NCBI GenBank assembly: GCA_000320545.1
Contig: ADNK01000741.1
Coordinates: forward strand, 1 to 64,000
Direction of reading: 5' to 3'
DNA length: 64,000 nucleotides
Source: Bigelowiella natans CCMP2755
Lineage: Eukaryota > Protista > Cercozoa
Position numbers and translations under genes: made by a program. The notes below the pieces were generated by a model, which saw nothing but the letters and a program-made list of their open reading frames with translations, was not told where the DNA came from and searched no databases. This document shows positions 3,874 through 44,085 of this stretch, in pieces (within the stretch, counting starts at the first letter, position 1; each line of letters opens with the position of its first letter).

Positions 3874-6800
3874 TGTTCGGGCCTCTTCTGGTAAGGAGTA
3901 CGTTCTCTTTCTCTCTCATGCTATTACGTACTGCTGTTACCCCTCCCCCCCCCTCCCTCTTCCTCCTCCTCCTCCTCCTCCTCCTCCTCCTCCTTTTTCA
4001 CTACTCTACTCTACTGCTGCTACCCCAAGGCAGCCATCACCACAACCACCTTTGTTAGCGTTTTTGGATCTGTCCTTAAAACGTGTTTTCTTCCACCAAA
4101 ACACATTTCCGGTATCCTTCTAGGGTCAAATCTGCAACAACGATGATCACAATGGTGACGATGATGATAATGATGATGATGATGGTGATGTGGACGCAAA
4201 ACAATGAAGATAACACTACCGAAGATAATGGAAAACGGTGGGAGATTTGTGAAGAAAGAGGAAGAGAAGAGGAAGTGGTTGGAGGTGAAGAAGACAGATA
4301 GATAGGAGTCACAAGTTATGAGCAGCAGCTCCTACGCAAACAATTAACAAAGGGAATAATTATCCATTCTCACCGAGTGATATGTTGGTCATTAAACTCA
4401 GCCCAGTTGTTGGTGCCAACTCGAATGTATCTGAAGAACACACAGGAACGAGTGGTGAGGAGGGGGGCAGACGGATGATTGGACGATAAAGCACAAAGCA
4501 AATTAACTGCGCCGGTGGTTGGTCTTTTGTTGTTGTTGCTGCTGTTGCTGTTGTGGTTGTTATTGTTGGGATTTACGAGAAGTAGTGGCCTGAGCTTGCT
4601 TGCCCTGTGTGCACGACGATGCCTGGAATCACACATAAGAAATTGAACCCTCCCTTTGAGTATGGATATTTTATTCCAGATCTGTCTCTATCCGACAATC
4701 CTACCCATCCCCCCCCTCCCCTTTAACTATCTATCACCGTCCTCATCACTTCTAGAAAACCTTTCAGGCGATATTTCCAATCATTCTTTTCTATTAGTAG
4801 CGGAGGTGCTGTAGTCGCCTCCTCTGCCTCGCCCCTTTTAGTACCTGTAAGGCGCAATAAACCATGCTTCTTCTTATCCGTGCACATATCAATTAATCAC
4901 CACCGAGATCCAGCAGATAATATTAGATTATAAAAATGAGGTAAAAATCATCTTAAAATCGTCAACATGGTGAGAGTCAAATGGTGCTTGGCCCTCCTGT
5001 TCCTTCTTCTCCTCATCATCACCGACGATGATTGGTTGATGAAAACAACATAAACTGATCATCACCCTGGTCAGAAGTCTTCCGGTCACCGTCCTGGCTA
5101 TCAGGCGACGAGATTGCTTTGCCACCGATGTTGCTGTTGTCGTTGCTTCCTTTCTGCTCTCCCTTCTTCTTCTTCTCCTCCTCCTCCTCCTCCTCCTCTT
5201 CCTCCTCTTTCTTCTCAATTGGCGGTACTCCGTGGACAGAGTATGGAAACATATCGAGCTCCTTGGGGAATTCGAAGTGCTGGTTGATCTTAACCTATGC
5301 GCGTATTGTCGTTGTATAGGCGAAGAAGAATGCGTGTGGGGGTAAAGGTGGTGTTCGTGGTTGTTGGCGTGATACTAGTTCACATCAACGATGGATGACA
5401 ACACACCTGCAACACACCTGTGATGATGGTGTCGGAAACGAAAGACATACATGCGTTGTTCAAAGTAATAGAGAATACGACGACACACAACAACAACAAC
5501 GATATCACGGGGATGTTATCTGTGAAATTATAACATGTTTGCGCGATTGCTACAGAGAAGACTAATAACAAAAGACGTGCATTTGAGAGAGGGAATTGTT
5601 AACTTCTTACCATTCTCATGGTGTCAAAATCGGTATAGAACCTCTTTAAGTGCAGCACAAGGACCTCAGGCGCAACCTGATAAAAAGGAGGGGGATCATG
5701 GAAGGAGGAGAGAGAATGATGGTTCATATTTATTCACAATAAAGGTTCTAACACATGGATAGTGATTATAATGATTGTGATACAAATAATTCTTAATAGT
5801 AAGTATCACCTACACTCTTACCGCAACCATCACATACCATACAATCGTGGGCAAGTAAGGGGTTCTTACAAAGCACTAAAGATCCGGTAATACTAATACT
5901 ACTCTACCAACCTTTATACAAGCGCGCTTGACCGCCGTGACCTTTTTCGGACAGCCTTCCATCTTGACCTTGTTGTTGGCATCTAGGATGTCACCTTTTA
6001 CGTACGAGTCTAACGATTCGTTCAGATTTGACTTGCCGCTGATGGTCAGATTCAGCACGAAGAACCTATGAAGGAGGAGGAGAAGGAGAAGAAGGAGTAT
6101 TGGCATAGGATTTAACTTATTTATGAAAGAAATCATTCGGCATGCGACGGCGGCGACGCAACAAGAGGAGAGGAAACACCACCTTTCCTCCCTCTCTGAC
6201 TCATGAATGGTCTCGAGTGAAATCGTCTGATGGCTCAGTATCCCTTGGAACACGGACTCCGGGGCTGTGCGGGGGATACAGACAGGAAAGCAAGTGTAAG
6301 AGGAGAGGGCGAGGCAAATAAAATTAAAAAGGAGCAAGAAGAGAAGAGGAAAAGAATGTGTTGTTGATTGGAGGAGCTCACCTGTATAGCTACCAGACTG
6401 CTGCTTCTTCTTCTCGGAAGGAGTAGCAGCAGCTTTCCCCCGCTCGTGTACAAGATCTAGTACGCGACTTAGGAATTCCTGGGCGTCTTGTTGCTCGCTC
6501 ATCTTTAGTAACGGTAAGGAGTTAACAATACACTGATATACTACATCAGTCTACCATCATAGGTAGCATTAGACACCGGCAATGATGCATTGTTTAAGCA
6601 CGCCAACCCACGCGTTATTCCACATGTGTACAGGCTATCATCATCATCATCATCATCATCATCATATGAAAATCAGTAATAGGCACAGTATACATTGACT
6701 GGACGTTCGCCAGGCCATGTAAAGCGCTCGCAGAACCCACGAGCATCGTACGCTTTCCTGTGGGAGTCTGTAGATATTTTGCGTCGTCGTCGTTGTCGTC

Positions 6801-6875
6801 GTCAACAATAACCAATTAGAAGATCTTGGTATCAACAGTTAATGTAATGCAGAGCGCCACGTTCATATCCGTAGC

Positions 6876-6914
<39 letters not shown>

Positions 6915-9900
6915 ATAAACAAAGGGAGAGAGGGGAAGGGGGGGGGGGGGGGGGAGTGAGAGAGAATCTCGTACCGTGTAGATGTGCAAAAACCAGGCGT
7001 AACTCCCTCAACGCTAGATCGTGTGCATGAGCAACACGAATTGATGATTCCTTCTTCTTTCTCATCGCTCCACTTCCCTCTGCTGCTGCTGCTGCTGGTG
7101 ATGGTGCCTGAACCGTATCTTCGGTATAATCATCATCATCATCATCATCATCGTCGTCGTTGTCTCCAAAGCCTGCTTTCAGCATGGAGTGACGGAATGC
7201 CTTAACGAGAAACATCTGCTGTAAAATCGCATTCATATAACAGGTTGCTCCCTGGTTCTTGAGCCCAACAAACTCCTTCCTCTTCCGGCGCCTGCCAACA
7301 TTTCCACGACCAGATCTCAATCCCACCCCCCCCCCCGACTCTACTCTTTGCCCCCAATCTCTCGGTGACGAGCCGACAGGGGGGGCTTCCCAGCATGGCA
7401 ACCGGGATAATCTTTCTAGTAATAGCGTCATAGCCTCATGTGAGCCATCGACAACTTCGCTTAGTAACATATACACCTGCCTCATCGTGGAGGTTTGCAT
7501 AGGAGGGATAGTGGTGATGCTAGAAGAGAAAAAGGGAGTCGTTATCGCACCAGCTGCACAACTCTTCTTCTTCTTCTTCTTCTCTAATAGCTTCACCTCC
7601 TTCCTATCTTCAACATTCTCCTCATAACCATGTTTGTAGTCGTTGTCTTCACCGTTGTTGTCGGCAGCGAAGATGCAGCTGTCAAAGACCTCCTTTAAAA
7701 TATTCACTCGCAGCTGCTCTGATATGATTCTTGACCTGGCGAGCAATCGCAGGGATCTCATAACAGAGACAACAGCAGCCTCTCTCTCTTTATTTATCTT
7801 GGTGCTAGTGCCTCCCGTGCCGTTTCGAATACCACGAAGGCAGCCATAAATCGTCGCTTCGTGGCGGCGAGGACGATGGTTGGGCCGATTCCTTACCTTT
7901 CGTTCTTCAACATCCTCGGTGCGTATATTACTGCTGTTGCTATGCTGTAATGATCCTACATTTGCTTTGCAGCCATTCTCGCCTAGACCGTTACCATTGC
8001 TCGACTTTAGGTCCTGCACAGGCTTGAGCCCTCGGAGTAATGCCAGCAGCCACTTCGCCAGCTTTGAGCGCGACCGTGCAACGAGGTGCTGGGGGTAGTA
8101 GCCTGGATTTCTCAGATGATCCACAGCCAGATGTGCTGCTAGTGCCAAGGCTGCTCGAAACCCAGGGTCAAGACACCATCCCAACGATGATGATGATGAT
8201 GATGATGATGACGACGACGATGATGATGGTGATGATGGTGATGAAAATGATGCGCGAGAAGAACACTGCTGAGGATGGCCATCGTTATTCTTCTCATTAT
8301 TAGTGATACTATCAACACCACCGCCGTCGTTCTCCTCACCATCCTCGTCGTCACCTAGTGCGTGGCTGGTAATCTGGAGCAAGTGGGACAAAATGGCTGC
8401 ACGTAGGCTGGAAGGATGTGTTTCTGTCTTACTCTTCTTCTGTTTCAGCTTCTCCTTCGTGTTCCCCATAGTATCCCCTCCTCCTCCTTTGGATGATGGT
8501 GATAATGATGACGATGATGTCAGAGAGTGGCTATCACCACCTTCCTTAAGATTATCATTTACAACAATTTTGTCGTAATTTTTACCGCAACTAGTAGTAG
8601 TAGCGTTCTTCTTGATCATGATGGTAGACTCCAAAACGATCGAATACAATGTCCTAGCAATGTCCTCTGCGATGTTGCTACAACTGCTGCTCCTCATCCT
8701 CCTGTTTCTATTGCCACGACCATCCCCCCTTTCTCCCACCACCTCCACTGCAGCTGCTGCTGCTGCTGCTATAGGGGCCCAACCCGGCCCCCACTCGGTG
8801 CTACTGCTACTGCTGCTGTCTCGAGGAGAAGCTGTCGTTATACCAGTGAAGAAGATCGCCTTGAGCAGCAGCGAGAGGTTCGAGTTGGGAATCAATTGTG
8901 TTGCTAAAGTAGGGGCTACACGAAGGCACCCTGCCAACAGTCTCACAGAAGCATGTGCTAGCCTAAATTTATAATAGTTGTATGATAGATGACAGCCAGC
9001 AGGTGCTATAAAAGAGAAATGCATGGGGTTAGGTAAAGGAGCCGATCTGTATCGTTTTCATAGTTGTCATCATTATTCATAAATATCTTCTTCATCGTCG
9101 TTCTGGTAGATTCATTTCTGTATCCATGCGTGACTTTGTTGTTTTTTTTTTACCGCAAGGCTGCCACAGACATCTCAGTTGAAGGAGAAGACGACAGAGC
9201 CGGTGATGATGATGATGACGTTGGTGATGATGTCGCTGTTGGGGTTATCTGGTGATCCATGCCAGCAGCCTGTGATTGGTTGTTGTTTTCAATTCAAAAT
9301 CGTCGTTGGTTATTTTATGGAAAGAGGATCACGACACAGTGAAATATCGATTTTGCTTCACTCGATTTGCTCCAATAAATCATTAAATATACACGTATCT
9401 AGGAGGTACGACTTTGAACTCTTCTTACTACCATCAAGAAATGCTATAATCTAGTGTCGTCGTCATCATCATCATCATCACCATTATCATCGTCATTGTC
9501 ATCATCACCCCAGCCCTACCTTGCCTTCGACAATGCTTGGGGCTAGCGAAAGAATTAGCTCGATAAGGGAGGGAGCCATGCTGACAAATGTACATTTAGA
9601 ACGGCGGTTCTTTAATAGAATGAAGGGTAAGTAGAGGAATGTGTTCAACAACAATACCTCCTTAGCCTACACATCTCGACGACTGGCAAGGACGAATGAG
9701 ATGAGGAAGAAGAGACGCCTGCCCCTCTGCTTTCAGATGTAAGTGGAAGGTGATATGAATCATCTTCAGAGAGGAGGGAGTGCGCGACTCGGAAGAGCGT
9801 CGCGAGAATTTCGTACAGACAGACGCGGCGATGGTTGAGTGGGGGCACGGTGGAAGGAGAGGATAGTGGCGAGGACGGGGAGACGGTAGAAGAAAGAGAG

Positions 9901-10433
9901 GAGAGGAGCACGCCAGATGCTGCAAGGGTAAGAAGGTGCCTTAGTCCGCCTTCCTTCACGAACTCTTCGACCCACCCCCTCCGCTTAAAATGTCTTAAGT
10001 CGATCATGGTGTCGCTACTAATACTATTCCGATTTGGTGGAAAGGTGTCTGAGGCTGCCATAGCCTTTAGTTTCTCCCTCGACGGCCTCCTATGAGTTGT
10101 TGCTGTCGTCGTGTACTGCTTTCCGGTGCTGGAGCTGTCCAATGGCTGCCGTTGCTGCATAGGGTGATTGGGCAAACGAAGGATACTCTCGGCGATTCTC
10201 AGAGCGTAAAGCAGCTCAAATGGGCGGTTGGGGTTGAAGATGTCTCCCCATGCTACTGTGGGGGGTGAAGAGGAAGGGAAAGCAGAAGAATTGGCTTGTT
10301 TATTGTTCTTCTTCTTCTTCGTTGCTGTGGATGGTGATGACTGAGGGAGTAAGGAGAGCACCTAAATCACGATAACAATGCAAGCTTCTTATGAGGAAGA
10401 TAGAAGGGAGAAAATTAATGCATGAATACGCAA

Positions 10434-10504
<71 letters not shown>

Positions 10505-11755
10505 GAGACGCACGCACACCCACAGTTTATGTACTATCCATCTTGTATTTCCACTGTCAGTTGTACGTCAATGTACCAGGAGGTGGCTCTCCGAGCAAGG
10601 TAAAAGCTTTAACAATCGCCACACCTACATTGATGAGGATAGCCAGATTAATGAATAATGTCCACGTTATAAAAAAAGAAAGCAAAGAAAGATGTAATTA
10701 AGAGTATTTCAGTCATTAGATGCAGTGATCTTCTTCCTCTTCTTCTTGTATGCGGATGATGATGATGACTGCTACTACAACTCCTACTACTACGACGGCG
10801 GATAAGTGGGATTGGCAAGAGAACATACTCTTGTGACTGCTAATTAATGCTGGTCGTCTTGGTAGTAGTACTACTAGTAGTAGCATTTGCAGTAGTAGAG
10901 CACCACCCACCTTTGCGCCAAAAACAGGGTCTGAGCATGGAGATGAGGGGATCTTGGTCTTCTTCTTATCAGCTTCCTCTCTCCTTGCCTCTTTTCTGCC
11001 ACTATCTTTCACTCCTCCTCCACTGCCACTACCTCCTCCTCCTCCTCCTCCTCCTCCTCCTCCTCCTCCTCTTTCTCCCCGCAGACCATCATCATCATCA
11101 TGTGGAAAATTATCACTAGATGCTGCTGCTGGTGCTGTCGGGGTGGGGCCGGAAGAGACAGCATCAGCACTTACAGTGGTAGTAGTAGTAGAAGCAGCAT
11201 TAGGAGGAGGAGGACTGGTTGTTGCCCATCTAACCATGTCAAACAAACGTTGATAGACCTCCCCTTCTAACGCTACCCGAGATAAAACATACGAGAGACG
11301 TGCTGTCTTAACCTGAGTTAGGGGAGAGAAGTAGGCGAGGAGGAGAACTGTAGTAAGAGCATGGTAGTTAAGTGGATAGAAGAAGGAGGAGGAGGAGGAG
11401 GAAGAAGAAGAGGAAGAGGAGCCTCAGAACAGAGTAGTACGTGAGCGAGGTACCAAGCTCGCCTGCTGTTTATTGGCGTTTTCGTAGTGTTCCTTGTTGT
11501 CGTGCAGTAGCAGCCCTCCTTTACCAGCACCTCCTCCCCCTCCTCCTCCTCCTCCTCCTCCAGAAAGAGTTGCTCCTACTGTGTGTGAAATCAAGGCAAC
11601 TTTGCTGAAAGAAGGAGGAAACACTATCACTATACTACTGCATAAATGCTGTTGGTCACAGGGTAGGGAGGAGGAGGCACTTGATTGTTACCATAATGCT
11701 TCTTAAATGCCACTGTTGCTGGCAGCGATACTCCTGGTTTTCCTGCTGTAGTAGC

Positions 11756-11787
<32 letters not shown>

Positions 11788-11964
11788 CCGAGACTCCCAC
11801 TGACAAAATCAAAATGATCAAGGGAAACGACCAAAATATATTCACGATTTATCAGTTGGAATTGTAGAAGATACAGGAGAGTCAATTGCTCGGCACAGAA
11901 CATCCCCGACGTATCTATCGAAGGGCAAATAACTAACGTGTTCAAACTTATCCTTCTCTCTCTT

Positions 11965-12020
<56 letters not shown>

Positions 12021-12053
12021 TCTCTCTCGGCGCATCGCTATGGCCGACTACTG

Positions 12054-12084
<31 letters not shown>

Positions 12085-13200
12085 CTGGGGATCCCCATGA
12101 TGACAGCATCATCACATGCCGATCTTGCCTCTGCAAGTAGGATATATCTTCAAGGTCGCAAGAATGCAACAGATCGCTCCTGCTGAACATGCGGTTGAGA
12201 ACGGGAGGGTTGAGCTGGGGCTGGCGAGAGAGGTAAATGACGTTGTCGGAGGTGTTGTCGTCCCCCTCATCCTCATCATCCTCCTCGTCGTCATCGGTGC
12301 TCTTCTCCATTTTCTGCATCCCGCTGTTGTTTTCTTCTCCGTTGTAGATGTTAGTGCTGCTGCTGCTGCCAGCTCCTATTATCCCTTTGCCAAAGCCACC
12401 GCTGCTGCCCTTTTTGAAGTCTATCTCCCCTAGGGTAGGGCCAGAAGCAGCACCTCCCTTGTTATTTTTCCCGGCAGCAGGCAGAGGGCGATTACCCACC
12501 ATGAGATGTAACATATCAGGATGGATGCCTAATGGCAGATCACACACTCAGCTACTCGGTGTATTATGATTTCATTGTAGTAGTAGTAGTAGTAGAAGTA
12601 GAAGAAGAAGAAGTAGGAACGGGAAAGAATGAGAGGAAGAGGAAGAAGATGATGATGGAGCAGAAAGAATGCAAGAATTCAAGGGCAGCAGCCAAAAGAA
12701 ATAGGTAGGTAGATAGGTAGGTAGGTCTTCCTGAATCCTACTATTACTAGTATTACTAGTACTAGGAATAAGAGTCTCTTCGCTAAAACGCTTGCACCCC
12801 ACCCGTACAACCACTACATGTTTGATAATGCATCCCCCCACCAACTCCTCCACCTTCTCTCTCTCCTATATGGTGAGGTCTTACACCCCTCCTCCTTCCT
12901 TCTCTTTACCTCTGCACACCCTCTGCAAATGCATCGCAATTGCTGTCCGTAGATCGGACACACGCGCACTTCGCGGCAGCCGTGTACGAAAAGAAGGAAT
13001 TCTGAGGCCGGGCACCGGCTTAACAAGGATATCTATCGTCGTATCTTCAACAAGGGGGATTTCGGATGCTGCCTCCGACAATGTATCTACGAAGCTGGCG
13101 AGCATTTCAGCGTACCTGAGCACAACAAAAACAACAACCCGAAAGGAGGTTGACGCCAATCTGTCGTCATCGTCTTCATCATCAGCAGCATGCACCGTTT
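1..13200. repeat. Dense simple-sequence repeats ((CA)n, (GA)n, (TGC)n, (TAG)n, (CAT)n, (GGA)n) in introns and exons
   Basis: Read directly; similar density at ~26.4-41 kb and ~46.5-56.3 kb. Confidence 0.95.
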
Positions 13201-16200
13201 GATTTATAGGCAGCGGATATGAACGACCAGCTTTGTGATTCTGAAGAAATACTTACCTATGTGCAGGTAGGGGTACACCTCCGGTGCTGTTGTTGCCCGT
13301 TACTGGCTTCTTCGTGGCTGCTATTTGCATTTGACGAACACATAGCTTGAGAAATTGGACCTGAATGCGCACAAGATCCAACCCCGCTCCATATCCTCCT
13401 CCTCCTGTTTTCCGTGATGATGTCTGCAGCAAGTGGCTTGATTCTGGAGTAAAGCATGTGTGGCAGGCAATAAGAAGTGCCCCAGCCCGTTTTGCTACAA
13501 CTTTACTAGGAACAAACGCGACCTATGGGAAGGAAAAGGCGGGGAGGAGGGGGGATGCGCATCATAAAGCTCAATGTAAGATAAGGTCAACTGGATATCA
13601 GAGTGCAAATAATCGCAAGCATATCCGTAATCAAGTTTCCTCTTATGCTTTTCCTCTCGTTACTCATTGTTTACCAGCTTCAGAAGGAATCGTAAGCCTT
13701 GTATTGCTGCATATTCGCTCACAACAAGCGACTTTAGCTGGCCATTTTGCCGCATCAACGTCCATGAGGAGGTGGAGCGCTTACGAATAGCATTTGGTTG
13801 GTCCACATCAACGAGTTGGATGCTACCACAGCTCGTATTGTGATGAAGAAAGAAACTCTCCGCCATCTCATAGCCAGCAACAGTGACCTATAAAATACAG
13901 AGATAGGACATAAAGGTTTGAATTACTGTTAAAGTCTGTTTGCCAGTAGCTAAATGTGGTTCAGCAAGGTGTCAGCCAAGAATGACTCCTACTCAAGTTT
14001 ATCTAATTCCTACTGCAGAGCATCTAACACACCGATATAGTGTGTTATGGCGGGCAAAATCATCAGTGTGCTCAGTGCCCACACAGTTTCTGGAAATGGT
14101 TGTGTGCTTTGCTGCAGTAAGTAGCAGTCATGATAACAACATTAGTAGTAGGAGCTTGTACTAAATCACCTCATTTGGCGAGAGCTTTAGGACCTTCTTG
14201 AGGAAGACTTGTGATTTGGTCTCACTCGACATTACACGAAAAAGCTTCGATTGGTCGGGGGACAATGAGGATGTGTTTCCACCACCACCCCATCCATGGA
14301 AGGCGCTTACAAATGATCTGCGAAGAGATGATCCACCACCACCGCTGCTAGCTGTTGATGCTTTGGAGGAGGCAGATTGCGGGAGAAGTTGGTGAGTACA
14401 AACCTGGTGTAGCCACCTGTAGCACGAGTCCCTGTCCCTCTCCGTAATAGCACTTCCTATCATCACTCTCCACAGGTTTAATGCCTGGAAAGTATCAAGC
14501 ACAAGACCGCTATTGGAGAGGATGAACTTGAGGAATTCGATCCTGATCGCCATCTCGCGGGCATGCTCTGTCTCGATATGAGAGCAGTTATTCTTTGTAT
14601 CTCCTACTGAATCTTCAAACGAAGAAGCAATAGACGCTGCTAATGACCGCTCGGACAAGGTGGAGGAAACGGAGTTGATACGTCGCAGCCCCCCCGTGGT
14701 GGTTGCTTTGGCTTCGGACGACGCCTTTCCTTCGGTTCCAGGAACAGTCGTCGTCGTCGTTGCGTCTTGGTCGTTCTGCAGCTCAGTAGCGGCTTCGAAC
14801 ATCTCTTGGATCTGTCGACGCTTTTGCTCTCTTTGGTGCTCGATTAGAGACGCCACACGGCCTATCATACAACATTTTAATAAGAATAAATAGGAAATAG
14901 CGGATCATTGAAGGCATGATGAATGGGTAGTCGCGGAAGAAAGCACACAAGCCGATACAAGTAGCAAGAATCAAACAGACAGCAGCAATCAAAGTGGCGG
15001 TCACACTATGTACGTGTACTTTTCTTGGTACTACCCTTCGTTATTGCAAGGTCATTGAGGCATGTTTCAACCAGGTTATGAGATGACTCCAAGTTCTCTA
15101 TGATGCCCCACATGGAATGGACATTGGACGCCGTGTACCATGCCCGATGGGTCTGGGGATATGTCCGGAGAATCTTTTTCAGCAGCTGGATTGAGGCAGT
15201 CACGTGCTCTCCCTGCTTCATTGACTCGATGCAATTGTCCATCAGTCGTCGCCGCTGAGAGGACCCCGGATCTTTCGCAAGGAGATCCAGCACCTTGTAT
15301 TGGGATAACAACAGTAGCAGACATAATAGCAGGTGTGAGCTAATCGCATAGTTCATTTCAAGGCAATATGAGGCTACTTACTGCTTCAGTAGCTTTTTTC
15401 CTCAATGAGAAGGGCAGTTGATAGATGCTATTCCTATCAACGCTGCCTTTTCGATTCTGTCCCCGTTGTGACTGTGGGCCATGCTTCTTTGAGTCCTTCC
15501 TCGGGATATCGTCAAACGAGTTGATGCGATGAATACCATTCTGGGATGTCGTATCGACGGTATTGGCATCACTTTTATTTGTCTCTTCCCTATGGGGATG
15601 AATAGCGTTCCAGAGTAGTGCGAGTCCATGCCAATCCGAACTACTTCTGGAGTTAGTACTCTTTCTCGCTTTTGACCCAGTCTCGTTGCTGAAGATGGCA
15701 AAGGTGACGTCCCGAACAAACAGAATCATCTGCGCGTCGTACCTAATAAACATAGAAAGAGTGTATATCGTGAAGAAGGTGCTAATCGTATAGCTGTAGG
15801 ATGAACATCGAAATGTACTCATTGTAGTAGTAAATCATAACTATCACCATCTTTGTCATCAACCCCATCATCATGGTCTTATTTGTCCACTGACCGTCCA
15901 AAAGGCTTTTGTTGGATGCGTTTGAAGAGATGCATTAAGTATGGAAGATCCAGCACTTTAATCAGCCTCCGAAATATGTCATAACATAGATGCTCCAAAC
16001 TCTCATGCTGCGAACTGGAAGCCAACAACCATAGTGCGTCGATATGCTCTTTCTGAATAGCCTTTCTTCCCGCCAGGAGCATTAGAAGGCTCTCAGATCT
16101 TCGAACGATTTCCAGGTGGGTGGACAAAGGCTCTAAGATAGTCTCTACCACTTTCATATTCTGCAAATAAATCATCGAAAGTTATCATGTATGGAGATGG

Positions 16201-18393
16201 AAGAACGAGCACAACGAACGCAGTAAAACAATGCACCAAAGGTGAGCCTAGCTTAAATCACATGCTTTCCCTTCCAACAGGGAACGGGAGAGAAATGGCA
16301 CAAAAGTGGTCATCATTTACTACTACTACTACTACTAGATGTCGACAATTGTTCCAACTATGAAGCAAAGAACGACGACACCTGTAGGTAGTCCACAAGC
16401 GCCTTAGAGGTTATCCACAAACGCATAGAAGGTGGGGGAGGACCGCTACCAGCCACATGAGTTGCTCCAAATAGGCCAAATCCTGAAGACGCTGCGGTTG
16501 TCTCATTATTGTAAGCTTCCTTTTCATTCACAGAGGTGACAAACGTTTTAATGTCGTTAATGCCAATAATGCGCCGATCCAGAAACGGAGACTTGAGCTG
16601 TCTCATAGCGAAATCTAATTGAAAGATCTCGATGGTTCGCGCCACCTAGTGGGTGAGAAGGCGAAGGTGATACGGTATTAGTGGTAAATAACGGCTGCAT
16701 CATACTAATGTTTGTCTCTTCTCAGAAGTAAGTACGTCCTACCTCTCCCCCACCAGCATGTCGGTGTGCATGTCCGAGCCAGGGTCTTATGGCAATCACT
16801 ATTGAATGCCACAGCTCTTTCTGTAGCCCTTTCAGCAATTTGTGTGACAACTTCAGCAGATAGTTGAAAGATTTTGGAGGTAACATTGTCGAGTAGGTCC
16901 GGGAAAAGTCTCCATCTAGAACCTTTAAGCAACCCTGTGGTATGCTCAGAATGGAAGCCACCTCTTGAGGGGATGCCCATGGCTGCCTTGAGTCTAGGAT
17001 GGACAGAATCGCCTCAAAACCACCTAATGATGTCGAAATACGGAGATCAATGTATATGGGACAGCAACTAAACCTGCGCACACAAAGTATCTACGTCATT
17101 CCTTCTCACAAATTCGAAATATTATTGCTTTCTGATTTCTTGACCTGCTTGGGCAAAAATGCAGATTGATTTGAGATTTGCGCTTGTCGATAATGAGGGG
17201 TTAAGCCTTGGATCTATGTATCTCCGCACCCTAAGTTCTCGTCCTGGTAATGGTTTGCCTTCATCCGAAAGCTCATACTTGGCACCTTGAACTGCTTTTT
17301 CCTCTAAGTCAGCGTAAAATGGTGCGTGAATTGACGTTGTCTCAGTCGAGTTACTTCCACGACCGCTGCTATGATGCCTAGCTTGTGGATCAGGATAAGA
17401 TCCTGGAATAAGGCAGTATGCCAATGCGTCCGTAATACTTGATGAAAGTAGCAGATGAGGGGGCTGAATACATTTTACGAACAATCCTGCCATAGGTTTT
17501 GTAGTAATGGTAATTGTCAGCAACAAATGAATAAATCATACAAATATGTTTATTCACACAAATGCCACAAAATTCACAGGGCTAGTCATAAAGGACAAAT
17601 AGTGCAACGTAATCATCCCCTCACCCACGTGCATGTGGCATGCGAGTCGATGTGTGCATGGCAATGTATAAGGCTCTCCCAATCTCTCGAAATCGCAGTG
17701 CATGTATTACGGATAGCTTCGTGGATGAACTGCACAGATTTTAATGCTACTGTGTCGAAGGCATTCTCGTCCTTCTCTAAAACTGGATATGCCACCCGTC
17801 GTCCAAGTATGGAATTGACGCACATTGGTAGAGCTACCTTAAGAAAATAACCCACCCTGTTCATGCATAGTCACAAAGTCAGCTTCTCCCCTTTCTTATG
17901 GTATGGTAGAGCAATGAAATCTCTACCTCTGGATTTCATGGGTGCGAGATTTAATTTCGTTTTCTAGTTGATTGCCTATTGACGCTTGGGTATTGGCCTC
18001 CATAATGGCGGAAGTTTCGCCTATCTTTCCTACCATAGCATCGAGCGAGTCGCTTAGTTGCTGGGCTGAGGGTTTTGCGTTCACCTACCAAAGACCATAT
18101 ATCCACAATCCTTCAAGAGAATCCCTGGGGGCGATGCGAAAGTATACTTTAAGGAAATTCTAGATATGGAAAGAATCTCGCATAGAAATTGATATTCGGG
18201 AATGCTTGGCCGATTTTTCAACAAAGATAGCAGGGGAGGTTAAGCATACCGTCAAGCATATAACGCTTGTAAACTGGTCTATCAAGCTAATGTAATTTTC
18301 CAAACTCTCCCCTTCATGATCAGCTTTGCCATTCGCCTGAATTTGTTTGCTATCCTCATCTCCCTGTCGTTCGGCTTCTTCGCCGTTGTTCAT
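1..18393 (-). CDS. Giant multi-exon ubiquitin-specific protease of the USP9X/USP24/USP34 (Fat facets-like) group; 3' end lies beyond the left edge
   Basis: Cys box FVGLKNQGATCYMNAILQQMF (~7210-7275), QQDAQEF (~6475-6495), VLHLKRF (~5640), spliced His box GIVVHTGQASSGHYFS|YIRVGTNNWAEFND (~4390-4622) and NAYMLFYEK (~3715-3740). Family-like N-terminal segments LDFAMRQLKSPFLDRRIIGINDI and HLEIVRRSESLLMLLAGRKAIQKEHIDALW, a UBL-like segment (~12500-13030), and C-terminal VLTECPDKAMRVAFANLL (~2320-2375). Checked junctions are GT-AG. Probable ATG at 18393. Confidence 0.92.
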
Positions 18394-18908: not shown

Positions 18909-20081
18909 ATGCCACGATCCACCAGACTAGTACAGAGGTTACGGCAGACCGTCCATGTCAACTTCAAGAAGGATTACGATAGACTCGTAGAAACTCTTGC
19001 AACAGCTAGGGATAGGAATACGCAAAAGGGAAAAGAGAAAAAAACTCTTGCGGTGTTGGCGTGTGTAAGCGGTGGTTCCGACTCGCGGGCTCTGCTTGAT
19101 ATCCTCAACCACGCCCGACGCTTTAAGCCAAAATTTGAATTGCATGCTGTGCACTTTAACCACAAGCTCCGAGGAGAGGAGGCAGAAGAGGATGAGCGCT
19201 TTGTGGCCAACGTAGTAGAGCAGACAGACGGCCTGGATTCGTTCATCGTGAGATCCTGGGATAACAACGATCGCAGGTCGCAGGAAGCTGCAAGGCAATG
19301 GCGTGAGTCTGAACTGCTTCAAATAGTTTCCGAAACGCTGGGAGATCGACATGTTGCGATTGCACTCGGGCACCACTCAGACGACAGCATCGAAACAATT
19401 TTAATGAAAATCCTGCGTGGCTCTAGCCTCATCTCACTTCAAGGAATATCAAAGGTAGTTGTGGATAGCAAGTCCGGCTTGGTCAAGCTTCGCCCACTTC
19501 TTGGTTTTGCAAAATCTGAGCTGATGAATTATCTCACTGATCTGGGTTTGGATTGGAGGGAGGATTCGTCTAATGTTTCATGCGACTATCAACGAAACCG
19601 AATCCGGAACCGCCTTGTCCCATTGCTGGAAGAGCTCGCAGGCTCCCCTAAAGCTTTGTCAGAAAGATTCGGGGAGTTAAGTCTACAGTCTCAATTGCTT
19701 CAAGAGTGGATAGAAAATGAAATAACGGCGGGGGACGGCAAAGAGAAGCATTTACTTAATCAGAAGTGCAAAGAATATCAATCATCATCATCGTCATTAC
19801 CATCACTAGCCTGCCCTTCACCAAATACATTCTTTCTCAACCTTGCAGAGCCTGTGCTTGTCCAGAGGGAGCGGCTTGCACGCTTTTTGTCCGATGAGAA
19901 AGGAGGAGATCCTGTGTTGGCTAGAAGTGTGAATCAAATAATGTCAAAACTTGGAGATTCGTCGTCACAGGGAAAAGTAACGAGTGTTGATCTCGGCAAA
20001 GGTTATCGGGCTTTCTGCGAGGGAAATAATGCAGTAACAGTCATTCATGAAGATGAAGAGATGATGTCCCGCAATGACTGA
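18909..20081 (+). CDS. tilS: tRNA(Ile)-lysidine synthase, intronless, probably organelle (mitochondrion) targeted
   Basis: PP-loop VSGGSDS, HFNHKLRG, EAARQWR, GHHSDDSIETILMKILRG, RPLL and EDSSN...YQRNRIR in one 390-aa ORF. The N-terminal ~20 aa are Arg-rich and lack acidic residues. Confidence 0.93.
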   Translation: MPRSTRLVQRLRQTVHVNFKKDYDRLVETLATARDRNTQKGKEKKTLAVLACVSGGSDSRALLDILNHARRFKPKFELHAVHFNHKLRGEEAEEDERFVANVVEQTDGLDSFIVRSWDNNDRRSQEAARQWRESELLQIVSETLGDRHVAIALGHHSDDSIETILMKILRGSSLISLQGISKVVVDSKSGLVKLRPLLGFAKSELMNYLTDLGLDWREDSSNVSCDYQRNRIRNRLVPLLEELAGSPKALSERFGELSLQSQLLQEWIENEITAGDGKEKHLLNQKCKEYQSSSSSLPSLACPSPNTFFLNLAEPVLVQRERLARFLSDEKGGDPVLARSVNQIMSKLGDSSSQGKVTSVDLGKGYRAFCEGNNAVTVIHEDEEMMSRND

Positions 20082-20703
20082 AATATGTGTGTCTGAAACG
20101 AGTTAGTTTCTCAATATTGTATAGATGAGCAGGATTGTGCGCTACATTTTAACATCTAAAAGCATAGAAAAGAATATTGTAGGACAAAGTTTCAAAATAC
20201 CCCGTCATTCATTTTAAAAAATCTTTTTTATTCGTCATGTTTAGAAATTTATCTTAGTCTAGAGGTCTAAAGTATCTATTTACACGTCCAGCAAGATATT
20301 CCACTGGCATGCTAGCATGGCCGGTTACGTTTGATGAGACAATTGCAGCCGCTGTATGCGTTACAGCTGCCGCTGTGGAATAACCTACGCCCGTGGACCT
20401 CATAAATCCACTTCATTTAAGCGCAATCTAAACATGAAGCCTACTTGAGCACATTATAACATGGAAACCTAAACCGCTGGTATCAAACTATGGAGCTAAA
20501 CAGCTGCTACATACTAGGTCACAGCATTTACACTAAGTGTAGTAGTTAAGTTAAATGCCTTTTAATTGCGAGCAAATCTATCTTAAGCGGCATGATGAAG
20601 CATGCTATGGCGCACAGCTACATGGCGTCCATGATTATGCTTACTTACATGCACAAACGGAGTCGCTACCGAAATACTTAGTAAAGTTGCCGTGCTGATG
20701 CGG

Positions 20704-22311: not shown

Positions 22312-23099
22312 CAACATTTAAAACGCGAAGAAAGGCTCGCGTCTTCCAATACCAAGCGCGGGTGGAAAAAGTGACGATGGATGTTCGTTCTTCACTACCT
22401 TTCGGTGCACGCCGCCTACTCGGACAAGGCAGAATTTTGTGATCGATTGATGTGTTTGTTTTACGAAATTTTCAACGATGATGCCATTATTGCATCCCAA
22501 TTGTCAAGTACGACAATACATTGTCGCACTTTTATCGCAATTCGAAATGAAGCGCGCGCGAATGCATTGCGACTAAACTCATTTCGGAAGCTAGGAGTTG
22601 GATGGAACCACTTATCATAGGTCCCGATTGGATACTCGCCTGGATGTCTGAAACTAACTCAATACTTGTTATCCACGTGGTCAGGCATTATTGTGGCTGC
22701 GGTCCTGTTCGTTCTGCTTTGTAGCTACTGCTATGTGCGAGGTTACGTTGGATGCGCTTAAGTTCCATCGCTGATGAGGTAGCAGGCACACCGAAGCACA
22801 GAGACTCCTGAAACCGTGGTGACAGCAGGGATCATTCAGAATCGTATTCCCAGTGAACTGTTGGAGACCCTCAAATGCGAGATATATCGTCGTATAAATC
22901 CGATGCCGAAAATGCTTACAAAAACGCCCCTGTGCCTTCAGGATGTATCTTGTTAAAAGAGTACGTCTAACACAGGAAGCCAAGAAGTTACCACGGCTCT
23001 CGTGGCGCTCAACGGAAGGGGTAATACTGTGCTACTTGTGTTTCAGGACTGAAAAAGTCAGCACAGTACCCAGCATTTTCGCCTCGAGTGCCATGATGT

Positions 23100-25151
23100 G
23101 ATCGTTGAGGTCCCTGCGGATCTAGCCCAGATTCGACACAACATGGTGACATGATGTCACATTGCATTGTTTCTTTCATGCAGAGTCAAGGGTGACATAG
23201 TGGAACAGTTGTCAGCATGCATGCTCATGGCGAGTTCTCAATTCATTGGTGGGGACGAAACATCGTGATGGAGATTTATCCGCACAGTTGACAGACCACT
23301 CATGCTAGCATGTGCGCGCATCACATCATGTGGCATCCCGCACTGGGGGAAGAAACTCTGCGGCTGCTCCATCGTCGATGTGCAATGGCGTGCAACTACA
23401 AGCAATGCAGACTCGATCAGCGTCGTCATTGCGCGTCACCACTAACGCATCCCATCTTGTGCGATCAATTTGGTGCGCTTGAACGCAACACAATTTGATG
23501 GAGAAAACTTTTGCCGACACTTTTCCCCTCTTGCATTTGACACGCTGAGCATGCTCAAAACTTTTGCCACTTTGCTCACAGAGATCCGCGCACTGCCATG
23601 CTGCGCTCGTGCGGAGAGAATCAGACGGCTAGACGGGTGTGTTTCCACACGATGTTTGTTCGATGCGCCATGCTGGCATGGGATGTGCGCACGGATGACA
23701 TCGCAAACAATTCTTGGTGACGTCAACTAGTCAAGGTGTCAAGGCAATGGTGACTGAGGTGGGAAAACACTTGTGTGCACTCACCACGCTCTTCACACAC
23801 CTAGCTAGCTAGCTTGCACATGCTTCCGTGCAAGCTAGCAAGGCGACCACTGGAGCGTTCTGCGAGTGTCATCGTGCTTCGAAACAAGCAAGTTTCTCCA
23901 TCTTTGAATCTGATCCACCCTCGGTGCGCATCCTCGACCGAACTCTGCAACCTCTGGTCGCACCGACGCACTGTCAGACTTGCCTGCAGTGGAAGCGTGC
24001 TTTCAGTGAGGACCCATTTTGCTTTGTGTCTGTCAGGCGGTGGCTGGCTAGCTGGGTGCCTGAGCAACGATGACTTCTGCGCGATGCATCACTGGCCATC
24101 TGGGCCACTTTTTGCAACGTCCAATGCAGGAACGCGCAGTGAGTGATCACGTGCTGAGTGGAAGCGATTGTCCCACCTGGCATGGCCACCTGTGCACCAC
24201 TCAAAGTGTGCATGACGCACACGGAACACAACCGTCATGACGCTCTTCCGTCCGTGATCACGCTGTCCCATGAGCGCAGACCAGCTTTCACAGGAGTTCA
24301 CTGTTGTTGTGTTTGTGCTTGAATCGGTGACAGCTTGCGAGAGTGCTCCAACCCCGTTCGATTGTTGGTTGGTCAAACAAAGAACGGAAAACTCCTCCAG
24401 GTTGCAGGCCTCCCTTGAGCGAGCGAACGAACGAAGGGCTTGGTCAACTTCACCATCATCAGGGTGATGATGACCATTGAAAAAACTTGACCCCTTCATT
24501 GCATCCGCCTCGTGCTTCACCATCGTCTCACCACGAGCTAGCGCGCCCAGAAACCTCATCGAAAGTGGCGTGCACTCAAACCTCACCTTCCAGCCTAGGA
24601 CAGCGGCGAGTTTTGCGCAGCGTGCTCATCACAGCCAGACCACGTTGTGGACAGTGGCCACTCGACCCGAAACGTGTGCAGACACGTGACAAAACGATGG
24701 AAGGACACGCTGACGACGCGTTCAAAACGCCAAGAGCAAACTGCAACAACTTCTGACAGGTGGCAATGTGGATCTCTGTGGACCACGGCATGACTGCAAA
24801 CACTGTCGACAACACACTCCAGGAAAGGCTCTGTTGCAAAACGTTGTCCAAAACCAGGCACCTGTGTCGAGACTGATCGTCTGGCACGTTGAACGTTTGC
24901 GTCGCAGAACAATGAACAATGAACAATGATGATGAACCACATTTCCAAAATGTTGCAAGACATTTGCAAAGTGCGAAACGCAGTGCCTCGAACTAGCTTT
25001 GGTGAGGACAAAGACCAGCAAACTGGCAGGTCAGTTTTGTGAATTGGGATGATCTAGCCACATGTCATGAAGCAGAGTTGCTCTTTGAATGCAGTTCGGG
25101 TGAAATTTGGAGAAATGGAAAGCGAGTTCATCATGCGAAAAACATGTTTTT
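23100..25151. mobile_element. Degenerate repeat/TE relic; TpA-depleted island 1
   Basis: In 23445-25151 all 11 TA dinucleotides found are in CTAG. The segment 24907-25055 is homologous (inverted) to ~42970-43125. Confidence 0.75.
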
Positions 25152-36561: not shown

Positions 36562-37506
36562 ATATTCGTGTGTAATATGTGTGCTTATAATACATGTGTG
36601 TGGATTGTGCTTGTACGACATAAATTAGGGCTTCTGCGAACAGTAGCATTGTCTGTATTTAGCCAAGTGTTGGGAGGTAAATTGCTGATTGGTTGATGAT
36701 GAACGAAGACTATAACTGTGTGAGTATGATAATATTGCTGCTTACACGTTGCTATATCTATGCATTTCAGACAAATATGCGATGCAGTTTATCATCGCCA
36801 GCACTGAGCGGATAGAAGCTGTGTGTGTGTGCCTGGCTAAAACGTTTGATATTCTGTGGCTTCTCCCTGGGGGGGTGGGTGGGCACAATGGCAGTAGTCA
36901 TCATCATCATCGACATAATAGCAGCCCATCTGCAATTGGACCGATCAAACGAATGGTAGTAGCACTCATATGTACTACCTTCTGCTTTCACCAACTCTAT
37001 GATAAATAAAACTGCAAGATATGGATTATGATAAGTAATAGCTAGGTATTATCTTTGTTTCTTCTGCTTGATGATGAACCCTCTGATGGTTACTCTGACT
37101 TTGCAGGCGTTTGCATGCTTATTGGATGCGTATGAAAGTATCACATCTGAGGCGTTGCCGCTCGATGTCATTGCATCTGTTCGAAAGCACGTTCCAAAAA
37201 CACTTGTGGTACATACACACATACATGAGTTGGAGATAGAAATGATCGTATTATCCTAATAATTCCAATCACTATGATATCAATCCATGTGCATCCATCA
37301 CTTGTCTAGAATAGCCAAGAGATATGAACTTGTGCTCATCGATGATGTGTGTCTTAAATATTATGGTTTTTTTGAAGGGTCAAAAGCTTCTCCTCGAGCT
37401 TCTGAAGATATACCCCGAAGAGGTAGAGAGGATCCATCGCTTGTGCGAACGTTTGGGACTATCTGTATTGCACAACGATGCACTTTTCGGGCCAGTCCAA
37501 ACATAA
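34721..37506 (+). CDS. Divergent CNOT9/Rcd1/Caf40 (CCR4-NOT subunit 9)-like protein; true start slightly upstream and unresolved
   Basis: In-phase spliced segments LRDNALKEIAN, WLAKELWQSNPNFIGYLEQQI, SHRVCNALTIFKMLATCPDIKKHF, FWSMKLSALVLIGTVLRHSD, LRTVALSVFSQVL, MQFIIASTERIEAVCVCLAK and SVRKHVPKTL. These are colinear with CNOT9 motifs as recalled: RENALLELSK, LAPMLWHS, SNRVCNALALLQCVASHP, FEYLRLTSLGVIGALVK, SKTVATFILQKIL, YICQTYERFSHV, ALRQCLPDQL. Confidence 0.8.
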
Positions 37507-38330
37507 GTTTGGGTCGCCATAAACTTTAGTCAGCATAGAATTACAAGCAGTTACTGAATATTTTAGAAAATTTGCATAGTACGGCAAACCGTCCGATTTT
37601 CTGTGTTATGCTTAATGCTATGTGATTGGTCCTACTGCCAGCCAGTTATTTCATCGAAGCATCTTGCTGCTTGTTGGCAGATATGCAGTCTGCTGTGTTT
37701 AGTTACTCTCGACTATAGTCTCGCATCGTGCTACATATGTTTATTTTGTCCACTCAAATACATGCACGGCGTGCTACGCCGTACGGGTGAATGCGTGCAG
37801 CTGGATGCGAGCAAATGTGTGCACACCCATCTAGCCATTATGAGCAAAGATGTAACTACACAATTGTCCATGTAGTTCGAATAATTGGTAGTTAATCCAT
37901 TACTTGCTGTAATAAAGAATAATATATAATTATATTATATATGCTATTACTATCTAGCTATGTCTATTATTATATAAGATACATGCATTTGGATGATGAT
38001 TGAACATTTTCGACACATTCAATGTGTTCATCTCATGCTAGCATGCTAGCTAGCATGCATCGCATCGTTGCTCATTTTAGTGATTTCATCGCTAATGTTA
38101 TATATCTCTTTTGTTACGTATGTCTATCATTAACATCTAGCTAAACATGCACGTGCAATGTCAATGACAATGAAACCATCAATGCATAGTATTATCCGGT
38201 GCCACAGCTAGCTAGACAGACGACTTATAATTTGGCGTTTATCACAATGGACTACGCATCTAGCAGCATGGATGCCATCGTCTTGCATGTGTTGGATGAA
38301 TCTAAGTGTTATTATTTCGACATATGATCG

Positions 38331-38369
<39 letters not shown>

Positions 38370-38634
38370 ACACATTGCAGTTGCATCCATTTACACTCCA
38401 CAATTAGTATTGAAAGCAGCATCGCGCTCGCCCGGTCGCCGTTGCTACAAAAATACAATCCAATCATACCGCTGCAGCGATTGAATCTTGCGCTTCTTCA
38501 TTCGTATCCCTCCATATTCACATCATGCTGTGGCCAATTCAATCTACACAAGGTCATCATGCAATTGGTGATGTAGATCAGAGCTCTAATTATGTAGCTG
38601 CCGTACCTGTGCGACGCCAACATGAAACCAGCAT

Positions 38635-38852
38635 CTATATACTTGAGGCTTTAAGTCCTGCTACGTCGAGTATTGCCTCACGTGTAGGCATGCTGGGCTG
38701 TGCTCCTTTTACCTACACGCACAATCATCTCTCTCATAATGAGTAAACTGCAAATTTTGTAGCGATATTGTAATGATCTCAAGAAAGTGCTACGATAATA
38801 ATGCTGGACATATGACAAGAAGTTCAGTGAGAGGATGTTTATGTGTGTATGT

Positions 38853-38891
<39 letters not shown>

Positions 38892-39806
38892 TTTTGCTTT
38901 GGCTATTTGTAAATGCAAGATTTCCAACGTCATTAATAATCTACCTGTATGCAGAGCGATGCCGCTGCTGCAGCAAAGCTTTTGGCAAACATCAACGGAA
39001 ATGGATAAGTTTTGTATCAATGGGCTTTAGGCGATGATGGATAAACACAATGGTCAAGGGGGACAACTAATGCTGAACGACGACGAGGACGATAATGACA
39101 ATAAGAAGAACAAATAGAAGAGAAAATCTGGATGGTGAACCATACATACAACTCACCGTAATGCAGCTTTGTCATCCTTTCCTTCTGCTCTTGCCACAGC
39201 GAAGGCCCCCCGAAAGCAGTCCCCAGCTCCTACGTGAGGTAGCAGCGATGATTGTACAAGTTTTTGCATAAGCGTGAACGTCAAATAACATCTACTACAA
39301 AAAGTAATCCAGAAGCTAATGATACGAACGAAGGAGGGGAAGGAGGAAAAAGAAGGGAAGAGTCGAAAGTAGACCTGTAGTGTCCACTATTTTCTCTTTA
39401 TCCACTTCCAATACTTCCTGCTCAATCTGACCCTAAATATGACAACAATGGATTACAATGATGATGATGGCGATGATGGTTGCGATTATGTGGCTGGTAT
39501 TATATAATAGAGCGTGTAATGCTCTCCAATAATGAGAAAAATATTGACGGTTTTTTGTTAATGGAAATAGTCATTAACGGAAAGCTTGTTGATGATTGTA
39601 TTGGATCTCAGTAATTACTCTTGAACACTACAGGTATTGCTATTTGTTGCTGTTGTTATTGCCTTAGGAGAAATAAGGATCGCACCATCTTTACCCAGGG
39701 TTACAAGAATTTCCTTACAGCCTATATTAATAAGTACAAACTCACTTGTGAGAGGGCTAGCTTCCTCGTTCTCTTTTACAATCATATCGACTTACCCACA
39801 CCATAA

Positions 39807-42022: not shown

Positions 42023-42113
42023 GGTGTTCTGGTGAGTGTTCAGCCCGTAGCAACTCAACAAATTTAATCTACACACGGGGGGGCAGCTCGGCTGCCCGTC
42101 GACAATTTTTTGT

Positions 42114-42270
<157 letters not shown>

Positions 42271-42429
42271 TCGTTGTTGTTGTTGTGCGTGTTGTTGTTT
42301 TTTTGGTGGTTGTGTGAAGTTGCATTCTTGACTTCCTAGCCAAGTGCAGTCAACGGTTGAGACAACAAGTCAAAAATTTTGGTATGTTCTGCCATACAAT
42401 TTTTGACTTTCGCAATATCCGTTATGAGA

Positions 42430-42705
42430 CAACATCCACTATGAAAATCACTTCGGTGTAACAACATAGCTGGGAAGTCAAGGGCGCGAACAGAATGACT
42501 AACTAACTAACTAACTAACATCGGTGAAAAAACACAGCTGGGAACCAACTGTGCAAATCACTTGGGAAGTCAAGGATGTGACTGGAATGACTGAACTAAC
42601 TGACCAACTTCGGTGAATGAACGCATCCACTGTGAGAATCAGGTGAGAAGTCCTGGAAGTCATGTCAAGGATGCGAATGGAACCAACTGACTGACCAACC
42701 AACAG
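42430..42705 (+). repeat. Tandem degenerate copies of a ~60-70 bp repeat (AAATCACTTCGGTGAAAAAACATAGCTGGGAAGTCA...CAGAATAACTAA)
   Basis: Three to four partial copies here, one at ~43176-43230, and two at 47704-47810. Confidence 0.85.
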
Positions 42706-43950
42706 CCCATTGCTAACAGCTGGTGCTCACTTGAGTGTTGTGAGAATTCAATTGTTCTCCAGCATCAGAGCAGCTCTCGGCCCTGCATCTCCTGCTTGCT
42801 CTTCATTTTTTGATGTCCCTGACTCTGTCAAGACCAGAGTCTTGCTCGGCGCCCCCCTCGGTTGTCCCTGACGTTGATCTTCGTGTGGACGTGGCTGTCA
42901 GGAAGTTCCTGCTCAGGATGGATGCTTTGCGTCTTCGTCACTTGGCTGCCAGTTGTGATGCATTCAACATTTGGTTCGTGCCAATTTGCACGAACCCCAC
43001 TGGTTTGCAGTCAGTCCTCACTGAAGCCAGTTCGAGGCACTGCACTTCGCACGTTGCAGGTCTTGTCACACTTTGGAAGTGCAGTTTTTCATCATTTTTC
43101 ATTGTTCATTGTTCATTGTTCATTCCTGGAACAACGAACAACGAACGTGACGATGAACTGCATTCCAAAACGTGGACAGTCAAGGGTGCGACCAGAACAA
43201 CCAACTGACCAACCTGGCAACCAACCAACGATTGCCTGTTCGTGCACTCAGCGCAGTCTGACAAAGTTCTGGCAGTCCTGGAGTCCAGCATCATCAAGCT
43301 CAAGTGAGCGAGTGAACGATGAGCAATTTCAGTGCTGGAGTCAATGATGGAAAGGATCATCGGACGTGCCAATTTGGGTCGCAGGCACGCTGGCACGCCA
43401 CCACACACGTTGGGAGGGAACGCGCTTGCTGCCGGCAGTCGTCCGATTGTGATTGTCCTTCGACAGACAACTCTGGGTTGTTGCTCATGCTAGCATGCAC
43501 GATGTGCATGTGACCTGGACGTGTGGGAAGCTGCTGGCTAGCTGCTAGGCTGGTTGCCGTTCGATGCCGCTTGTTTCAAATCGACACGTCTAGACGTGCA
43601 AGCTGGCGTGCGCACGTGTCAATGTCAATCGATCGAAACTGAGATGGCACTGCAGGAAAAGCCAACGCGCGCATGGAACCTTCATGCAGGTGACGCCCTT
43701 GCCACTCTGGTCACAAGTGCCAGAATCTAGAGAATGCTGCTCGGTGACAGTCGCCTTGTTGGTGCACTCGAAGCATAATGTGCATGCTAGCATGGCAACA
43801 CTTGACAGTTTTGTGCGTGCCAAGAATGTGCGATCAATTTGAAAGTAGAAGTCTAGGAGTGTGCATGCAGTGCGAAATGTGCCGTGAACATGCTAGCATG
43901 TCTGTGTGAGCATGAGTCTTGTCGCCACGACATCTTCGAGTGCGTGTGTT
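42520..43950. mobile_element. Degenerate repeat/TE relic; TpA-depleted island 2
   Basis: 42716-43775 has only 5 TA, all in CTAG, and none in the first ~775 bp. It shares ~150 bp with island 1. Confidence 0.75.
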
Positions 43951-44085
43951 TTCTAACAGACACACACGTACATGTCAGATGCCATCTCTATTTAGTGTTG
44001 CAGCTGTAAGCATCATGTGCCACGCACTCAGATTCGATGTTGGGTGATGCCAATCAGTATAGATGCCTTTAGTAAGCATCGGTCA

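Follow-up and report, generated by a model that had tools for sequence, protein, structure and literature searches.

The DNA analysed here, a single stretch of 64,000 nucleotides (the window), is eukaryotic and rich in simple repeats, and its genes are of the USP, TilS, and ankyrin types. AC repeats are abundant, as has been described for Bigelowiella natans (PMC13746701). A USP9X/USP24-type deubiquitinase gene with Pfam UCH and ARM matches occupies positions 1970 to 17526 on the reverse strand and is seemingly split into many exons, the gaps between them being rich in simple repeats. The TilS gene (18909 to 20081, forward strand; PF01171, E = 3e-37) is uneroded in the sense used below and has kept 5 Tyr codons. 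Its best matches were an MMETSP transcript (45%) and B. natans (41% identical, E = 2e-61), with the other 118 matches among those listed far behind (best E, 7e-36). A quick tree made from 34 of the 120 listed matches, with long branches and uneven composition flagged, joined the window, the MMETSP transcript, and B. natans with an SH-aLRT value of 100. The ankyrin and USP genes were uninformative on lineage, and TilS, a single gene, likely groups the window with the chlorarachniophytes; its 41% identity would point to a host different from B. natans itself.

Downstream of TilS lies island 1, whose core (23445 to 25151) has lost TA to saturation. The preliminary description had claimed that about 100 TA dinucleotides were expected there and that 11 were present, all within CTAG; an exact recount on the assembled sequence agreed, with 11 against 97.6 expected from base composition (observed/expected [o/e], 0.11), 11/11 in CTAG, and zero elsewhere. 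CA and TG are in excess (o/e, 1.46 and 1.71; mean, about 1.58), ApT is lowered (AT o/e, 0.77), and GC rises from 44% to 52%. We sorted TA into three classes: CTAG, half-sites (a 5' C or a 3' G), and plain TA. At background density, island 1 would hold 4.1 CTAG, 37.5 half-sites, and 67.1 plain TA. With the islands masked, CTAG makes up 126 of 3354 TA (3.8%), and the chance probability of 11/11 is about 2e-16, or about 1.5e-13 if the sites are counted as 9 clusters; the CTAG context was picked after the fact, and the significance survives regardless. Ranked across the window, the stretches free of non-CTAG TA measure 1709 bp (island 1), 1062 bp (42714 to 43776), and 313 bp. The sequence CTAGCTAGCTAG, placed earlier at about 23801, begins exactly there; this intact (CTAG)3 run (23801 to 23812) adjoins a small inverted repeat (23805 to 23842).

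In a change-point fit to the edges of island 1, the density of non-CTAG TA was 57 per kb up to 23068, dropped to 10.6 per kb between 23068 and 23444 and to 0 in the core, and was back at 55 per kb beyond 25151. The left shoulder (23068 to 23444, 376 bp) was supported by a log-likelihood gain of 6.9, and a right shoulder, with a gain of 2.0, was not. About 80% of TA has been lost from the left shoulder, which keeps 4 non-CTAG sites against the roughly 57 per kb outside. Its survivors are ATAG, TTAT, CTAC, and CTAA plus two CTAG, so that 3 of the 4 non-CTAG sites are half-sites, in line with the earlier statement that half-protected sites dominate there. Four sites prove little alone, and the half-site effect rests on pooling three islands. 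The abrupt return of TA at 25152 was likewise real, and the boundary described as graded is so only on the left, where there is one intermediate step; the right edge is sharp.

Two further islands occur in the window. The core of island 2 (42716 to 43775) carries the same signature, with 5/5 TA in CTAG where background density predicts 2.5 CTAG, 23.3 half-sites, and 41.7 plain TA, and in its shoulders (42300 to 42715 and 43776 to 43990) TA is partly eroded. Abutting it on the left, a long (GTTGTC)n array passes into (GTT)n (42108 to 42290), for which an eroded (TTA)n run is a possible source. Within island 2 is an inverted repeat (43067 to 43174), and most differences between its arms are A/G and T/C changes at ApT. 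The centre of island 3 (57350 to 58460) is unsaturated and displays all three tiers, with 6 CTAG, 8 half-sites, and 2 plain TA against 2.7, 24.4, and 43.7 expected. It contains inverted repeats at 57709 to 57817 (nearly perfect 32-bp arms) and 57938 to 58005, possibly left over from a small inverted-repeat element.

Repeat copies inside and outside the islands allowed us to examine the direction of change. An uneroded copy on the forward strand (47699 to 47810; E = 1e-18), with sister copies within island 2, was used as the outgroup. It keeps ATAG, ATAA, and CTAA where the island 2 copies have ACAG, ATGA or ACAA, and CTGA or CCAA. In six of the eight scorable comparisons the site had changed, each time to TG or CA; the two unchanged sites were half-sites in the outermost island 2 copy, which also carries one TA absent from the uneroded copy. 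The alignment of the copy at 42645 was too loose for it to be counted among the eight. The half-sites at 42467 and 42500 were inherited from the uneroded copy. A TA-containing ancestor, which had been proposed as a check, is present in the window, with TG or CA in its island 2 counterparts, and comparison of the copies shows that the change at sites with a surviving uneroded copy is from TA to TG or CA.

Conversion among the island 2 copies rises with distance inside the island. This position-dependent exposure is the part of the suggested spreading or processive mutator that held; processivity itself was not shown. The gradient would be explained equally well by processive spreading, by a soft-edged chromatin domain, or by a neighbouring piece of younger age.

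Island 1 is tied to island 2 by a short repeat (24907 to 25052, forward strand, 146 bp) that has an inverted copy at 42976 to 43114 (76% over 148 columns, E = 3e-23) and a partial third copy at 43130 to 43174. Between the two full copies, two sites are reciprocal, one copy having CA where the other has TG. At one homologous site island 1 has CTAG where island 2 has CTGG, a pair from which CTAG may be read as not fully immune. Because no copy or coding relative was found for most of island 1, the direction of change presumed for it is carried over from island 2 and from the final 150 bp of island 1. Across the two saturated cores, 549 CA plus TG were counted, and simulated saturation of the background predicted 560.

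What island 1 was before erosion was sought in several ways. A 274-codon frame with one TGA on the reverse strand (23804 to 24625) shows no sign of being a gene, and its length is unremarkable because TA loss removes TAA and most TAG stops. HMMER found 0 matches to it in 1.84 billion proteins, there were none in Pfam or among viral contigs, and a 178-amino-acid part had no usable Atlas match. Pfam searches of all six frames of the three islands returned only a weak low-complexity match, Rfam returned 0 matches on the island, and a transition-tolerant search of 12 island 1 chunks against the window recovered only the repeat at 24907 to 25052. A search for terminal repeats, with scoring so permissive that alignments extended from end to end, scored 107.5 in direct orientation (null maximum, 144) and 142.5 inverted (null maximum, 133, from a null that ignores the CA/TG excess); we take this neither as evidence of a terminal repeat nor as firmly negative.

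Next, we examined how flanking bases affect TA loss. Rates for the three classes were fitted to eight island segments, with exposure allowed to vary from segment to segment; the islands amount to only some 4 kb, so that counts are small, and an ancestral composition had to be assumed. Given these caveats, with plain TA set to 1, half-sites were lost at 0.34 to 0.44 and CTAG at 0 to 0.05; that is, half-sites were lost some 2.5 to 3 times more slowly than plain TA and, under most baselines, CTAG at least about 20 times more slowly. Equal loss of all TA was rejected by the model fit. Protection of CTAG alone was also rejected, being 6 to 9 log units worse than three tiers under every baseline. 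A strict one-flank rule was disfavoured, since CTAA yielded both CCAA and CTGA. Against two equal flank effects that multiply, the three-tier fit gained 10.1, 7.5, 4.5, and 1.4 log units for an ancestor with 1, 2, 3, and 5 times the background CTAG, and 8.9 when the CTAG-rich stretches 37500 to 39000 and 20250 to 20700 served as baseline (upper bound on the CTAG rate, 0.04). Under most baselines, CTAG is thus better protected than two equal flank effects multiplied together would make it, a result that would not be expected from a simple preference acting on each strand.

Taken together, these results show a regional, two-strand change of TA to TG or CA that ran to saturation with a ranked context. 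The claim that island 1 is a saturated mutator target is supported by the TA-bearing ancestors in the window, by TG or CA in the island copies, and by the slower loss of half-sites than of plain TA. That no mutator acted, the DNA being foreign and always TA-poor or the bases miscalled over modified DNA, would agree with the lack of an ancestor for most of island 1. We regard this as highly improbable: TA-bearing copies and reciprocal CA/TG sites exist in the window, three islands obey one context rule, exposure is graded across copies of one repeat, and the B. natans de novo mutations described below were Sanger checked (10.64898/2026.01.13.699255).

The eight island segments hold 36 CTAG against 13.3 expected at whole-window background density, and we therefore considered whether CTAG had been gained. 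Two uneroded stretches, chosen by eye, have 6.0 (37500 to 39000) and 6.7 (20250 to 20700) CTAG per kb, compared with 6.4 in island 1. Because these stretches match the island density, retention suffices and no gain is needed, and a net gain was dropped as an explanation once they were found. Both are TA-rich and hold many CATG, TGCA, and CTAG words, and they possibly represent the sequence class ancestral to the islands.

CTAG might still have been partly re-made, with C-to-T decay at CCAG and CTGG (themselves fed by CCGG) creating CTAG and half-sites and the slowly lost CTAG accumulating. The 36 CTAG over 13.3 expected, the single CCGG in the cores, and the fact that CAG-to-TAG and CTG-to-CTA changes would give exactly the half-sites all speak for such a process. 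However, the equally CTAG-dense uneroded stretches, the enrichment of CCAG plus CTGG (39 versus 15), the undepleted CpG of the islands, and the inheritance of the half-sites at 42467 and 42500 from an uneroded copy all speak against it, and it would still require CTAG to resist the TA mutator. We consider re-making a rather improbable contributor.

CpG itself was counted in the cores, where 156 CG were found against 105 at background density. The excess is confined to contexts without a 5' C or a 3' G, which echoes the TA rule, and the CG o/e of 0.82 does not differ significantly from that of a CpG-neutral ancestor (0.74 ± 0.05). CCGG occurs once in 3878 bp (23445 to 25151, 42716 to 43775, and 57350 to 58460), and the other CG contexts lie above background. 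Methyl-CpG decay was rejected as the process, since CpG is not depleted in the cores and only CCGG is rare.

We then looked for similar erosion elsewhere. The motif expected from an eroded (AACT)n run retrieved 108 metagenome and 13 viral loci; 11 of the 121 passed a fixed erosion rule, CTAG making up 11 of the 112 TA that survive there, and the 13 viral loci showed no real erosion. Three loci (L015, L022, and L063) were pooled, after L066 (99% identical to L015) and seven loci with 500 to 750 eroded bases were dropped. Their survivors were 6 CTAG, 31 half-sites, and 16 plain TA (o/e, 0.19, 0.16, and 0.06), a set in which the search motif inflates the CTAA count. Under the same rule, the window kept 17 CTAG, 14 half-sites, and 7 plain TA (o/e, 1.03, 0.14, and 0.05), and the CTAG share of survivors was 6/53 in the pooled loci versus 17/38 in the window (Fisher p = 5e-4).

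The pooled loci resemble the window in a TA o/e of about 0.1, in the CA/TG excess, and in the over-representation of half-sites among survivors. They differ in that their CTAG is eroded (0.19 versus 1.03) and their CpG is low (0.32 to 0.57, versus 0.73 to 1.03 in the window). Their AT o/e is 0.93 in L015 and L022 and 0.49 in the repeat-dominated L063. The half-site bias is thus common to both sets, and full sparing of CTAG is seen only in the window. L015, which carries a copia-like remnant, has a weak retroviral SH3 match below the Pfam cutoff, and L022, which carries a DDE transposase remnant, has a DDE transposase match above it. A repeat of 310 to 350 bp, about 80 to 83% identical, is common to L015/L066, L022, and L063. 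The pattern of the short repeat that links islands 1 and 2 gave 0 matches in metagenome contigs, and none of 8 eroded loci compared with the window matched it.

These comparisons bear on whether the same mutator, with only a mild flank preference, was kept off CTAG by a shield over the whole word, such as a DNA mark (methylation, for example) or a bound protein. A shield would account for protection that is more than multiplicative under most baselines, and also for eroded transposon contigs that share the half-site bias and not the CTAG sparing (0.19 versus 1.03). Yet a non-additive enzyme preference yields identical counts, and no chlorarachniophyte CTAG modification was found in the literature searched, including the text of PMC9998398. 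In addition, the CTAG/CTGG pair and a CTGG-CTAG-CTGG run in island 1 (24044 to 24055) suggest slow loss rather than a block. On this balance a shield is on the unlikely side, and an intrinsic preference of the mutator is the reading that we carry forward.

The cores also differ from expectation at ApT. AT o/e is 0.78 in the two saturated cores and 0.96 in the unsaturated island 3. None of 300 eroded random sequences (0.98 ± 0.06) and none of 93 overlapping eroded blocks of the window (minimum, 0.86) had a value as low as that of the cores. One repeat site reads AT, GT, and AC across three copies. When island 1 is aligned with the copy at 43130, there are 7 mismatches, 5 of them at ApT and 2 at a former TA; 4 of those 5 ApT mismatches are ATG/ACG, which could be CpG decay in the two other copies, yet island CpG is undepleted. 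These observations suggest that, in the two saturated islands, ApT is also targeted, though less strongly than TA.

A process of this kind is already known. Mutations arising de novo in two virus-derived regions of B. natans were reported to be A:T to G:C in 230 of 231 cases, all at TpA, at a rate raised about 1,000-fold in some lines only, and 124 TA-poor clusters were described genome-wide (10.64898/2026.01.13.699255). An ADAT2-like deaminase was proposed there from prediction only (10.64898/2026.01.13.699255). TpA hypermutation is described only by this preprint in the literature that we searched. The window resembles the B. natans hypermutation (Mettrop et al.), as far as the preprint's text describes it, in the change of TpA to TpG or CpA, in its regional character, and in the sparing of surrounding genes. 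The composition is of the B. natans type, TA-poor and CA/TG-rich (TA 0.11, CA 1.46, TG 1.71), and it is regionally restricted, with 55 to 57 non-CTAG TA per kb on both sides of island 1. With its shoulder, island 1 spans 2.1 kb, which is below the preprint's working cluster definition of at least 3 consecutive 1-kb windows (10.64898/2026.01.13.699255); this is a threshold of size and not of mechanism.

Other features set the two apart. The patches in the window are 1 to 2 kb long and have no recognisable viral or transposon gene, whereas the B. natans regions are virus derived. TpA is the sole target seen in the preprint, whose text reports no ApT, whereas ApT is lowered in the window cores; the 378-day B. 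natans experiment would likely miss a slow second target such as ApT. The preprint's main text contains none of the words CTAG, context, trinucleotide, and tetranucleotide, and its Table S2 could hold flanks (10.64898/2026.01.13.699255). Supplements aside, CTAG sparing in TpA erasure was not found in the literature searched.

RIP in ascomycetes, as described, is also regional, acts by dinucleotide-specific transitions on both strands, and can saturate, but it makes TA out of CA and TG and so runs opposite to the process in the window. Fungal RIP was rejected, since TpA falls to 0.11 and GC climbs from 44% to 52%, contrary to C:G to T:A change. As for a RIP-like trigger by homology, a 110-bp copy, albeit a short one, lies 5 kb from island 2 and is uneroded; that this copy (47699 to 47810) stays uneroded suggests that repetition alone may be insufficient for erosion.

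We consider it probable that a region-targeted host mutator of the B. natans kind drove A:T to G:C change at TA until good substrates were gone. A silenced chromatin domain would recruit the mutator activity, and an adenine deaminase would make inosine, which is read as G, so that deamination on one strand would give TG and on the other CA. The candidate deaminase would prefer a 5' T, take a 3' T as second choice, and disfavour C two bases upstream and G downstream. CTAG would be the last TA word left because it is self-complementary and both of its adenines lie in the worst context. TadA/ADAT-type adenine deaminases, in the work cited here, convert A to G on DNA with a neighbour preference, as the mutator is presumed to do. 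The TadA-derived editor 7.10 prefers a preceding T (10.1101/2020.07.05.186544), and in another benchmark ABE8e editors showed a GCA rather than a TA motif (PMC11702641). The published texts searched contained no report of CTAG avoidance by such deaminases.

The lesion could instead lie on thymine, with an enzyme oxidising T in TA steps of silenced DNA and leaving the same TG/CA scar. The oxidised product would mispair with G. Because TA and AT are both symmetric, every count fits a T lesion equally, and sequence cannot separate it from an adenine lesion. If the enzyme acted on double-stranded DNA, it could also recognise the palindrome CTAG as a whole. The preprint's proposal of an ADAT2-like deaminase, itself a prediction, points the other way (10.64898/2026.01.13.699255), and we judge the thymine route unlikely.

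With the process already known, what is new here is the three-tier code with CTAG exempt and ApT as a second target, both drawn from only some 4 kb of island sequence. A saturated island amounts to a completed substrate screen, and the code and the ApT preference therefore form a fingerprint that any candidate enzyme must reproduce. The mutations listed for the B. natans experiment could be used to check what the code predicts. The islands extend the process to small patches lacking recognisable viral genes and, if the TilS grouping holds, to a second and distant chlorarachniophyte, and CTAG sparing sets it apart from TA erasure in which CTAG erodes. Only tentatively do we propose that chlorarachniophytes possess a DNA-editing defence with the code plain TA > C-TA/TA-G > ApT and the CTAG palindrome exempt, unlike the TA erasure of other protists. 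If so, the exemption would mean either an A:T-to-G:C editor that reads double-stranded DNA, unlike TadA and ADAR, or a CTAG-specific protective mark, and TA erasure would have arisen, or been tuned, more than once in eukaryotes. An enzyme that naturally edits A to G in chromosomal DNA would be relevant to genome defence and to base editing.

Two minor observations concern words around CTAG and in the islands. At the single bases flanking CTAG, A was found at 5 of 72 half-sites in the islands versus 73 of 276 outside, and G at 41 of 72 versus 83 of 276. The 12-bp palindrome CATGCTAGCATG occurs six times in the window (20308, 23301, 38034, 43486, 43783, and 43889), and four of the copies belong to islands or their shoulders, the other two to uneroded sequence.
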